DNA from: Desulfomonilia bacterium
GTDB lineage: Bacteria; Desulfobacterota; Desulfomonilia; UBA1062
Length of the DNA stretch: 64,000 nt
Direction of reading: 5' to 3'
Assembly: GCA_050014195.1 (NCBI GenBank)
Contig: JBEKDT010000004.1
Span: forward strand, 32,001-96,000
Position numbers and translations under genes: made by a program. A model generated the notes under the pieces. It had not been told where the DNA came from. It saw only the letters and a list, made by a program, of their open reading frames with translations, and made no database searches. Below, piece by piece: positions 35,582-37,133 of this stretch. Positions within the stretch are counted from its first letter, which is position 1. Each line of letters begins with the position of its first letter.

Positions 35582-35815
35582 ATGGCAAGTAAACCTATAC
35601 CTAAAGAATCAATTTTAGAAGATTGTGAACCCCTTGGGGCAAGGAATGGTATTAAAAGATGGAGATCGCCTGATGGAAAAAGAATATATACTTGGGATTC
35701 TCTGCATGGAGAAATTGAAGTATTCAACAATCGTGGGTATCATTTAGGGGTTATTGATCCCTTAACAGGAGAAATGATAAAATTAGCAGTTAAAGGAAGA
35801 AAGATCGATGTGTGA
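35582..35815 (+). CDS. Stand-alone colicin E3-like cytotoxic RNase domain
   Basis: RW...GKRIYTWDSLHGEIEVF...HLGVIDPLTG matches the colicin E3 WDSxHGExE...HLGxFDPxTG catalytic core. Confidence 0.82.
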   Translation: MASKPIPKESILEDCEPLGARNGIKRWRSPDGKRIYTWDSLHGEIEVFNNRGYHLGVIDPLTGEMIKLAVKGRKIDV

Positions 35816-36137
35816 GCATAATGAACATCATACATTTATTGAATTATGCATAAGCGGCAATGCATTAATGGAAGAAATTGACGATTTCATTGAAGAATGG
35901 CATAAGTCCTCAAACTCAAAAGAAATTCATGAATTTCTAGGCATGAGTTTGGAGGAATATTCTTCTTGGGTTGTAGAACCAGATATTTTGCCATTTATTA
36001 TTACTTCTCGGATTGAACATAAATCTTTAGCTGAAATCATTGAGGAAAATGAAAGTTTACCAATAGCTGCTCGCACTAGTAGCCCTAAGAATGCAAAATT
36101 AATCTTAGCGTGGTTAAAAAAACAGAGAGCGAAATAA
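35808..36137 (+). CDS. Small acidic hypothetical protein, candidate immunity/antitoxin
   Basis: Overlaps the toxin stop by 8 bp; EIDDFIEEWH, HEFLGMSLEEYSSW. Confidence 0.65.
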   Translation: MCEHNEHHTFIELCISGNALMEEIDDFIEEWHKSSNSKEIHEFLGMSLEEYSSWVVEPDILPFIITSRIEHKSLAEIIEENESLPIAARTSSPKNAKLILAWLKKQRAK

Positions 36138-37133
36138 ATGGATAACCCTGAAATTAATTTAGCAAGAAGACTTGTAGAGAGGAAAATATTAACCCCCCCC
36201 ATAGATATTTTTAAATTAACTAAAAATTATGCAACAATAGAAATTAATAATATTCCATTTGAAATTGACGGGATCTCTTTAGATTTAAAAGTACCCGGGA
36301 AAAAACCTCATATTATTTTAAATAATATTGTAAGCTCAACTCGAATGCGTTTTACTTTAGCTCATGAATTAGGTCATATATTAATACCTTGGCATATGGG
36401 AATTATAATTGATATTACCCGAGAATCTAGCAAAGGGTTTTTCCTGGAATCTCAAGAAGTTGACAATCATTATTATTGGATGATTGAAGCAGAAGCCAAC
36501 CGATTTGCCTCAGAATTGCTGATTCCATCCTCCTGGGTTAAGGTATTAATAAAAAGATACAAAACTCCAGAAATTGTCACCAGAAATATTATGTCTCAAG
36601 CTAATGTTTCTCCTCAGGCTGCTACAATTAGTTTAATAAAAAATTTTCCTCCAGGTTATGTTTGTGTATTAGTGGATGATAAATATGAAGTAATCTTTTC
36701 TGGAAAATCCAACGGAACTTTAGCCAGTACACCAGAATGGAATACAATAATTGATCCTGAAAAGTGTTTTTCTTTTTGCAAAAATATTTATCAATTTGAA
36801 ATTAATGGTAAAATTTTTATATGGTGGTCATTCAACGATGACGTTGATATTCCTCAAAAAATCGATAATCGAGAATGGCGTGATATATTAGATGGAATAA
36901 TTGATGATATAAAAATGCCAGAAAACCAAAAAATAAGTTTTAAGCGATCTTTAAATGGAGTTATTGCAGCTGTAAATAGCAGAGTACGTGGCCGTGACAG
37001 AACTCTAAGATCATTATATTCTGCCTGTCTTCAGAGATTATTCCCTCGAAAAGAATACTCTTCACTGGTAAAACATTCTGATTTTAAAATATTCCTTTGG
37101 AAACGTTCTTATGATCTTATAAATAAAAAATAG
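36138..37133 (+). CDS. ImmA/IrrE-family Zn metallopeptidase, no N-terminal HTH
   Basis: RFTLAHELGH (HExxH), EAEANRFASELLIP; abuts the previous stop codon. Confidence 0.88.
   Translation: MDNPEINLARRLVERKILTPPIDIFKLTKNYATIEINNIPFEIDGISLDLKVPGKKPHIILNNIVSSTRMRFTLAHELGHILIPWHMGIIIDITRESSKGFFLESQEVDNHYYWMIEAEANRFASELLIPSSWVKVLIKRYKTPEIVTRNIMSQANVSPQAATISLIKNFPPGYVCVLVDDKYEVIFSGKSNGTLASTPEWNTIIDPEKCFSFCKNIYQFEINGKIFIWWSFNDDVDIPQKIDNREWRDILDGIIDDIKMPENQKISFKRSLNGVIAAVNSRVRGRDRTLRSLYSACLQRLFPRKEYSSLVKHSDFKIFLWKRSYDLINKK

Follow-up and report, generated by a model that had tools for sequence, protein, structure and literature searches.

A candidate toxin-antitoxin cassette with a stand-alone colicin-E3-type ribonuclease and an accessory IrrE/CapP-type peptidase

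Ribonucleases (RNases) of the colicin E3 type are known as exported weapons. In colicin E3 and cloacin DF13 the RNase domain (Pfam PF09000) carries conserved D, H, E, H and R residues, and a small acidic inhibitor, Im3 or Imm-Cloacin, is encoded immediately downstream. Other described systems are built around M78 zinc peptidases. IrrE (PprI) of Deinococcus is reported to cleave its partner DdrO, a protein of 129-130 residues, between L106 and R107, 23 residues from the C-terminal end. CapP, which accompanies CapH in defence operons including those of the cyclic-oligonucleotide-based anti-phage signalling system (CBASS), cleaves CapH between F82 and R83; the substitution R83A blocks the cut and T-rich single-stranded DNA stimulates it (bioRxiv 10.1101/2022.04.27.489752). 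IrrE is reportedly stimulated by single-stranded DNA as well, bound via its GAF-like domain. In RosmerTA (RmrT/RmrA) an M78 peptidase lies beside a toxin-like gene, and Makarova, Wolf and Koonin predicted in 2009 three-component systems in which a COG2856 protease cleaves the Xre antitoxin of RelE or PIN toxins (PMC2701414). The cassette described here lies in a 64,000-nucleotide stretch of a Desulfomonilia bacterium genome (GCA_050014195.1, contig JBEKDT010000004.1, positions 32,001 to 96,000; hereafter the window). Its three genes encode a stand-alone E3-type RNase (gene 1, the predicted toxin), a protein of an unannotated family (gene 2, the putative antitoxin) and an IrrE/CapP-type peptidase (gene 3; Table 1). 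The best explanation of the cassette is a mobile type II toxin-antitoxin unit with an optional third gene, and on balance we lean towards a pair gated by a sensor protease that would clip the antitoxin tail.

An earlier note on this DNA had described three tightly coupled genes in an AT-rich island. Its coordinates and the low G+C content hold, as do both junctions: genes 1 and 2 overlap by 8 base pairs (bp; the junction reads ATGTGTGA), and the stop codon TAA of gene 2 is followed directly by the ATG of gene 3, a 0-bp gap. A gene-1 relative is encoded in 209 of 185,579 species genomes (one genome per species). We counted neighbours at the best 80 loci from these 209 genomes, calling open reading frames (ORFs) of at least 40 amino acids (aa) and running jackhmmer from each of the five proteins of the island. 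Of these loci, 80 of 80 have a gene-2 homolog directly downstream of the toxin gene on the same strand, and 76 offer an in-frame start codon that would produce the 8-bp overlap. A gene-3 homolog directly follows gene 2 in 49 of the 80; 42 of these 49 peptidase ORFs have at least 300 aa, and of the seven shorter ones two are cut by a contig end and five are fragments. With the pair at every locus and the trio at 49, the arrangement is far beyond chance. Thus, the core unit is the pair of genes 1 and 2, and the peptidase is an accessory found in about 60% of loci; the neighbourhood conservation that the earlier note had named as a check applies to the pair, but extends to the trio only at those 49 loci. 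For the comparisons below, four of the 31 loci without a peptidase were set aside because they have fewer than 1000 bases after gene 2, leaving 27 peptidase-less loci.

No conserved fourth gene was found at the 80 loci, and the two other genes of the island, encoding DUF7946 and DUF6119 proteins, occur in 0 of 80 each. Apart from the toxin gene and gene 2, no gene is conserved alongside the peptidase, and the flanks vary by locus. A Pfam scan of 149 flanking ORFs (one per side where present) gave a heterogeneous set, mostly housekeeping enzymes or transporters where a family could be assigned, with no secretion domain and no Rhs or contact-dependent inhibition (CDI) domain. A word-based search for gene 1 returned 202 clusters of 42-135 aa; the relatives listed share 57-81% identity, come from many phyla and, where named, are called 'colicin E3/pyocin S6 family cytotoxin'. 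None of 72,556 plasmids carries a close toxin relative (0 records cover at least 80% of the query); 71 plasmid records match gene 1 partially, namely colicins, cloacins, pyocin-like loci and Bacillus 'SAR2788 family' proteins.

Gene 1 matches the Pfam family Cytotoxic (PF09000) with an E-value of 6.2e-16 and 58.9 bits (cut-off 22), its residues 25-75 aligning to positions 30-79 of the 80-position profile. Among solved colicin E3 chains it matches 1e44_B (E 9.5e-10; query residues 24-68 on chain residues 40-85). D39, H42 and E46 align with the catalytic D-x-x-H-x-x-x-E of colicin E3, and H54 with the second histidine of the fold. R73 falls at the position of R545, which together with D510, H513 and E517 we take to be the catalytic residues of colicin E3. 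Across 81 family members these positions are almost invariant (D39 79/81, H42 81/81, E46 81/81, H54 80/81, R73 81/81). The second histidine is described as conserved throughout the colicin E3 fold by Zhang et al. (PMC3482391), and four distant PF09000 proteins are reported to be toxic in E. coli and to cut 16S ribosomal RNA (rRNA) at the colicin E3 site (PMC9304027). By homology, gene 1 would cleave 16S rRNA in the decoding centre and so stop translation.

The gene 1 ORF has 77 aa and an in-frame stop codon upstream. A library-wide phmmer search at any length found 1106 related proteins at E <= 0.001. The 60 best matches are 55-191 aa long, and among the 150 best listed the full length of gene 1, including its conserved N-terminal residues 1-24, is matched by short proteins only; 20 of the 150 exceed 200 aa, and their alignment is limited to the catalytic core. 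The source genome has a single PF09000 match, so it holds no full-length recipient toxin. Long upstream open frames at five loci (L028, L039, L002, L070 and L009) contain no delivery domain that we could find; that of L039 lies opposite a hydrolase gene. Judged from these alignments, the subfamily is truly stand-alone, without delivery domains. This agrees with the earlier note, which had called gene 1 a stand-alone E3-like RNase on the strength of motifs that are indeed present, and had raised the possibility of a mere orphan polymorphic-toxin tip, against which the N-terminus, matched by short proteins only, argues. Like colicin E3 and cloacin DF13, the cassette combines a PF09000 domain bearing the conserved residues with a small acidic protein encoded next. 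Unlike the colicins, it is chromosomal and lacks receptor domains, translocation domains and a lysis gene, and its toxin is about 29 profile positions shorter. A colicin-type bacteriocin was therefore rejected, since both delivery domains and an Im3-type immunity protein are missing.

Gene 2 could not be assigned to any family of Pfam or NCBIfam (no Pfam hit at E <= 1). The earlier note had called it acidic, which holds for the protein overall (isoelectric point, pI, 5.06) and for residues 1-85 (pI 4.39), but not for the tail, residues 89-109, which is basic (pI 12). Its AlphaFold2 model, built on a 21-row alignment, is all-helical, with a mean predicted local distance difference test (pLDDT) score of 80.7 and a final helix at residues 93-108; the sole stretch with pLDDT below 50 is residues 86-90. 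In an alignment of 81 gene-2 proteins the N-domain is conserved and the tail variable, and W102 is invariant in the family alignment. No solved relative of the fold was found: the best Foldseek match in the PDB has an E-value of 1.0, and an exhaustive structural scan (VIA wide) reached at best Z 5.2, to generic helices over residues 46-109 only. The model matches only unnamed clusters in the Atlas, and the sequence matches nothing in the PDB below E 0.26. Searches of Pfam and NCBIfam at E <= 1 gave no helix-turn-helix (HTH) family, and the best Foldseek row, the KorB DNA-binding domain, is not significant (E 1.0, probability 0.18); gene 2 could still bind DNA. A word-based search gave only 3 relatives, and the family emerged solely via neighbourhood and profile searches, the latter yielding 411 clusters. 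Among 120 of these clusters listed, none has a Pfam domain and the source names read 'hypothetical protein' except for one 'Phage protein'. A gammaproteobacterial locus without a peptidase (L071, 6197-7267) encodes a fusion in which the gene-2 N-domain is followed by a C-terminal extension of 285 aa that has no Pfam family.

Co-folding of genes 1 and 2 gave an ipSAE of 0.73 (runs 0.73, 0.73 and 0.76) against 0.08 for the best of three controls. The runs have at least 88% of contacts in common and a partner pLDDT of at least 73. The 0.73 mark is reached by 58 of 80 solved complexes and by 2 of 110 mismatched pairs, a rough calibration since custom alignments were used. The predicted interface covers gene-2 residues 25, 28-29, 31-34, 39-41, 48, 51-52, 55-56 and 58-59, including the invariant D25, W31, H32 and Y51, and toxin residues 31, 33-34, 47, 49-51, 53-56, 58, 63-65, 68-69 and 71-74, with H54 and R73 among them. 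Thus, the acidic N-domain of gene 2 (about residues 8-78) is the predicted toxin-binding part. For the immunity protein of colicin an alpha+beta fold is described (PMC3482391). With gene 2 all-helical, the co-fold score is unlikely to reflect memory of the colicin complex. The model lends support to binding, without showing it. Together with the co-occurrence at 80 of 80 loci and the overlapping start in 76, it points to gene 2 as the cognate inhibitor of gene 1, as the earlier note had supposed. This putative inhibitor is an all-helical protein unrelated to Im3 and Imm-Cloacin, has no match in Pfam at E <= 1 to the cloacin/Im3 or Imm45 families and is followed by a peptidase gene.

The third gene matches Peptidase_M78 (PF06114) at E 4.7e-13, and its best defence model is PADLOC capP (E 7.8e-24). 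The motifs H76-E77-x-x-H80 and E117-A-E119-A-N are present, and an alignment of 19 relatives shows no variation at H76, E77, G79, H80, E117 or E119. Its model (pLDDT 92.1) superposes on IrrE (3dte) with Z 17.1 and a root-mean-square deviation (rmsd) of 3.0 over 206 aligned positions (model residues 1-233), on PprI bound to single-stranded DNA with Z 16.8 and rmsd 3.4 over 206 residues, and on CapP (7t5t) with Z 16.8 and rmsd 3.7 over 219 positions (model residues 3-313). From these alignments gene 3 has a peptidase domain, a helical linker and a GAF-like domain. IrrE ceases to align at model residue 233-235, and residues from about 240 to 331 form an added helical domain; residues 172-331 have one Atlas match with a TM-score above 0.5, a cluster of 323-aa ImmA/IrrE peptidases. 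No XRE HTH family was detected at E <= 1 (Pfam). The earlier description of gene 3 as an IrrE/ImmA-type peptidase that has no such domain and carries an extra C-terminal region is therefore borne out. Membership in NCBIfam antitox_spr1629 was rejected (40.8 bits against a cut-off of 335).

Like IrrE/PprI of Deinococcus, gene 3 has the three-domain peptidase architecture, and the predicted X-Arg site about 22 residues from the gene-2 C-terminus recalls L106-R107 of the 129-residue DdrO as reported. Unlike DdrO, gene 2 has no detected XRE or DNA-binding family and is proposed to bind a toxin; the proposed output is release of an RNase rather than derepression of a regulon, and the peptidase bears an extra helical C-terminal domain. 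The CapH/CapP systems provide the best PADLOC model and a similarly close structure, but the cassette does not fit their pattern: no HTH family was detected in the partner (Pfam and NCBIfam at E <= 1), and the genes downstream include neither CBASS nor another effector operon. The RmrA models of RosmerTA match the peptidase core of gene 3 (best E 3.9e-12), but only through the peptidase part of their own profiles (for example, profile positions 171-255 of 380). Unlike RosmerTA, the cassette has a separate antitoxin gene and a different toxin family; RosmerTA was rejected, as the peptidase is not fused to an HTH (no HTH family at E <= 1). The idea of a protease that cuts the antitoxin of an adjacent toxin is shared with the COG2856-Xre-RelE/PIN systems. 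There the Xre antitoxin is often fused to the protease, whereas the cassette has an unannotated antitoxin family, an E3-type toxin and a peptidase of the GAF-bearing IrrE/CapP form. RelS-RelI (PMC13284704) also has a 77-aa toxin, but it is RelE/ParE-like, so RelS-RelI is not the cassette.

The peptidase is tied to gene 2 by a conserved motif in the gene-2 tail. We scored this motif as [A/V/I]-A-R followed by W[L/I/V] 8-16 residues later. It is present in 48 of the 49 loci with a whole or fragmentary peptidase gene; the exception, L003, carries I-A-R, and a looser pattern finds the motif in 49 of 49. Motif and peptidase presence are associated with a Fisher p of 2e-14, not corrected for kinship, and in the toxin alignment no column follows peptidase presence (at most 0.39 of 0.93 bits). 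Among the 50 peptidase-linked sequences (the window and the 49 loci), P3 is M, L, I, F or V in 48, P2 is A in 48, P1 is A in 50, P1' is R in 50 and P2' is S or A in 48, and the arginine stands 19-28 residues (mode 22) from the gene-2 C-terminus. The window motif, I86-A87-A88-R89-T90, coincides with the low-confidence linker of the gene-2 model. On a maximum-likelihood tree of the toxin and the gene-2 N-domain, with the tail left out, the peptidase state changes 13 times on the best tree, and at least five changes are forced by well-supported branches; in the five well-supported independent contrasts the motif is concordant in 3-4 and opposite in none. Thus, the link between the peptidase and its partner proposed in the earlier note finds a concrete form in a tail motif that travels with the peptidase gene. 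Since IrrE and CapP both cut an X-Arg bond in the C-terminal part of their partners, the invariant A-A-R predicts that gene 3 would cleave the gene-2 tail between A88 and R89.

Based on these observations, we propose the following mechanism, whose toxicity, binding, cleavage, trigger and degron we infer from homology, modelling and co-occurrence. Gene 2 would be translationally coupled to gene 1, and its acidic helical N-domain would cover the surface around H54 and R73 and hold the toxin inactive. A signal of the single-stranded DNA type, from DNA damage or phage replication, would switch on gene 3, which would cut the antitoxin tail between A88 and R89 within the hydrophobic-A-A-R motif. As the predicted toxin interface excludes the tail, a second step would be needed to free the toxin after clipping, most likely the degradation of the clipped antitoxin. 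The predicted new C-terminus is MAA in 18 sequences, LAA in 17, IAA in 7, FAA in 3 and VAA in 2 (47 of 50); the MAA, LAA and IAA ends presumably resemble the ClpX(P) recognition end of the ssrA tag and of the cleaved LexA N-terminal fragment. The freed toxin would cause growth arrest or cell suicide. The gated pair itself we consider somewhat probable. Its fullest form is possible but distinctly more tentative: the first intracellular toxin-antitoxin system with a colicin-E3-type decoding-centre RNase, in which an IrrE/CapP-like protease would sense single-stranded DNA from damage or phage, cut before the arginine and unmask an ssrA-like degron, ClpXP would destroy the antitoxin and ribosomes would be inactivated, the whole serving as a portable, cross-phylum suicide or abortive-infection switch that is also carried on temperate phages (Gordonia phages and a gut phage-like contig).

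Several results weigh against this mechanism. The toxin starts about 29 positions into the PF09000 profile, and with these first domain positions missing its activity and cut site could differ from those of colicin E3. The gene-2 tail lies outside the predicted toxin interface in the co-fold, and 14 of the 27 peptidase-less loci have a tail of fewer than 25 aa, so tail removal alone should not free the toxin. The tail motif also occurs in four of these 27 loci (L006, L008, L012 and L013), and a phylogenetic sign test of the motif-peptidase link is not significant (p = 0.125, 5 pairs). The degron step is proposed by resemblance to the ssrA tag and LexA. The abortive-infection role put forward in the earlier note is conjectural, and the defence context of the flanks is weak: about 17 of the 149 flanking ORFs have mobile-element, toxin-antitoxin or defence-type domains (integrase, resolvase, IS110, reverse transcriptase, HEPN, ParE, Fic, AbiEii-like, Schlafen-like or similar). 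Finally, only two cassette loci were found in 2.9 million viral contigs, a trio (L088) and a pair (L087).

Some of the same observations could be read differently. The peptidase might be a constitutive, cassette-borne turnover protease that senses no signal, making the cassette an addiction (post-segregational killing) module independent of host Lon and Clp. The spread over many phyla at 57-81% toxin identity is as expected of a frequently transferred element, the mostly housekeeping flanks include scattered integrases, a resolvase and an IS110 transposase, and the tail motif would travel with such a protease just as well. Addiction modules are usually abundant on plasmids, however, and no close toxin relative was found on 72,556 of them; gene 3 also retains the whole IrrE/CapP architecture, including the GAF-like domain that in IrrE is reported to bind the single-stranded DNA by which IrrE and CapP are stimulated. 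We therefore regard this explanation as unlikely. It is also quite unlikely, in our view, that the tail is a docking or inhibitory element for a peptidase whose real substrate is elsewhere (a host or phage protein, or a repressor), the pair tethering or regulating it. Co-variation indicates linkage, not cleavage, and both the position of the tail outside the predicted interface and the family-specific C-terminal domain of the peptidase would suit such docking. Yet the motif mimics the X-Arg sites of IrrE and CapP at the same distance from the C-terminus and sits in a flexible linker, as is usual for protease sites, and no other conserved gene accompanies the trio, given the heterogeneous flanks and the absence of DUF7946 and DUF6119 from all 80 loci.

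Two further explanations concern the toxin itself. Colicins, CDI toxins and other exported toxins commonly carry a PF09000 domain as their tip (PMC3482391, PMC9990079), and the 20 long proteins among the 150 best listed matches share just the core with gene 1, as would be expected if genes 1 and 2 were an orphan tip and immunity gene for recombination into a large exported toxin, next to an unrelated peptidase. What makes this highly improbable is that residues 1-24 are conserved in short proteins only, the 60 best matches all having at most 191 aa, that the source genome has no second PF09000 match, that the flanking ORFs contain no secretion, Rhs or CDI domain and the upstream frames of L028 and L039 are domain-free, and that the tail motif ties the peptidase to gene 2. 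The shortened N-terminus relative to the colicin E3 RNase domain could also suit a tamed ribosome-binding or RNA-processing factor with gene 2 as its chaperone or partner. We give this little credence, the least of all: the full catalytic set is strongly conserved, and a selfish cassette fits the tight toxin-antitoxin gene arrangement, the patchy occurrence and the lack of the island in 30 related genomes better than a housekeeping factor does. The alternative in the earlier note, that the peptidase is itself the antitoxin, is disfavoured by at least 27 loci that keep catalytically intact toxin genes without a peptidase.

If the sensor-gated pair is correct, a cytoplasmic E3-type RNase would add a cutter of the ribosomal decoding centre to the toxin-antitoxin repertoire; a relative is encoded by 209 of about 185,600 species genomes. 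Gene 2 represents a putative family of inhibitors without a Pfam entry (411 clusters). The peptidase-linked tail motif gives a precise candidate bond, A88-R89, for the 2009 prediction of toxin-antitoxin systems gated by COG2856/IrrE-type proteases; relative to that prediction, the combination is novel in its different toxin, its new antitoxin family and its GAF-bearing protease form. If the degron idea is true, sensor proteases would be linked to housekeeping proteases in toxin release. RtcB2-PrfH repair reverses exactly the ribosome damage expected here, and the cassettes may be one natural source of it. A literature search that left subscription journals and supplements outside its scope found no description of an E3-type toxin-antitoxin/peptidase cassette, and the PF09000 papers it returned concern exported toxins or repair only. 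The PADLOC check suggested in the earlier note likewise turned up no described system: gene 1 hits no family, and the models matched by gene 3 are all for regulators or antitoxins. For gene 2 the one match, to SduA, is weak (E 7.8e-4, 16.8 bits) and was judged probably spurious.

Relatives of the cassette also occur in phages. A gut 'Bacteriophage sp.' contig carries an integrase, an XRE protein and then the trio, its tail motif in the V-A-R form. Three Gordonia temperate phages have a four-gene row between the immunity repressor and the integrase. The toxin there has 168 aa and ends in a PF09000 domain (E 4.8e-13); the second protein has 284 aa and over residues 1-64 shows homology to the gene-2 N-domain (hhalign probability 99%, E 4.8e-18). 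The first two genes overlap by 8 bp. The third encodes a 140-aa HExxH metalloprotease without a GAF-like domain, matching M78 below the cut-off (E 2.8e-4), and its homology to the gene-3 family is not established (hhalign probability 7%). The fourth is a small HTH protein (DUF3263 in Phabuloso). The Gordonia cassette, a distant recurrence that speaks for the proposed reading, is like the window trio in its toxin domain, antitoxin N-domain, 8-bp overlap and adjacent HExxH protease, and unlike it in its longer toxin and antitoxin, its short and weakly M78-like protease and its location in temperate phages. The annotation of the Gordonia genes as 'HicA-like toxin' and 'HicB-like antitoxin' is not supported by the PF09000 and gene-2 N-domain matches. 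In addition, four PHROG families of uncharacterised function match the N-domain of gene 2 over residues 8-67 (E 1e-9 to 4e-6); phages thus have stand-alone relatives of the antitoxin domain, conceivably for counter-defence.

A different non-colicin setting for the E3 domain was observed on Bacillus plasmids. On a Bacillus cereus plasmid (L082, 850-3249) a 252-aa 'SAR2788 family putative toxin' ends in PF09000, its gene lying between those of an S8 peptidase and a 197-aa hypothetical protein. In total, 15 Bacillus plasmid records match.

Table 1. Coordinates of the cassette and its sites in the window, and of a related phage cassette
Feature	Position	Strand	Description
Gene 1, toxin (stand-alone colicin-E3-type rRNase, predicted)	35582..35815	+	77 aa, Pfam PF09000
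Gene 2, putative antitoxin (unannotated all-helical family)	35808..36137	+	109 aa
Gene 3, IrrE/CapP-type M78 zinc metallopeptidase	36138..37133	+	331 aa, Pfam PF06114
Codons A87-A88-R89 of gene 2, conserved tail motif hydrophobic-A-A-R-[S/A]	36066..36074	+	Predicted scissile bond between A88 and R89
C-terminal amphipathic helix of the antitoxin tail, residues 93-108	36084..36131	+	AlphaFold2 model, W102 invariant
HExxH zinc site H76-E77-L-G-H80 of gene 3	36363..36377	+	H76, E77, G79 and H80 without variation in a 19-member alignment
Extra helical C-terminal domain of the peptidase, residues ~240-331	36855..37130	+	Not covered by the IrrE alignment
Gordonia phage Phabuloso genes 52-49	L083 1653-3699		Toxin, gene-2-like protein, metalloprotease (genes 52-50) and DUF3263 protein, in the immunity region

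The cassette occupies the right-hand part of a 4.5-kilobase (kb) island (window 32650-37180) that sits immediately downstream of an rRNA operon, at its 5S end. Between about 32.5 and 37.0 kb the G+C content is 0.29-0.33, compared with about 0.5 on both flanks. The operon, on the minus strand, begins 220 bases downstream of the cassette, with the 5S gene at 37353-37469 followed by 23S and 16S. The island core is absent from 30 of 30 related genomes searched, though both flanks are present there; the matches of these 30 genomes to the island query comprise only its first 280 bases and the 5S-side flank. Contigs of another public run span both junctions without differences (32493-33591 and 34444-37753), so the placement of the island is not an assembly artefact of this record. 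Promoter and terminator scans of the island gave results no better than those of shuffled sequences.

Two further genes on the plus strand lie in the same AT-rich island (window 32882-35567), ending 14 bp upstream of the toxin. The first encodes a protein of 311-334 aa with a borderline DUF7946 match (E 4e-6), and the second a full-length DUF6119/TIGR04141 protein (E 1e-143) that also matches PHROG 18579 (E 7e-37). As neither was ever found beside the cassette at the 80 other loci, they form a separate unit. At the left edge of the island (window 32700-32850), three intergenic copies of a short motif with the approximate consensus CAGTCCCCTTT were observed. A piece of 50-60 bases from this stretch matches several sites in three related genomes (G002, G013 and G018), and the stretch may be a small dispersed repeat or an insertion hotspot.

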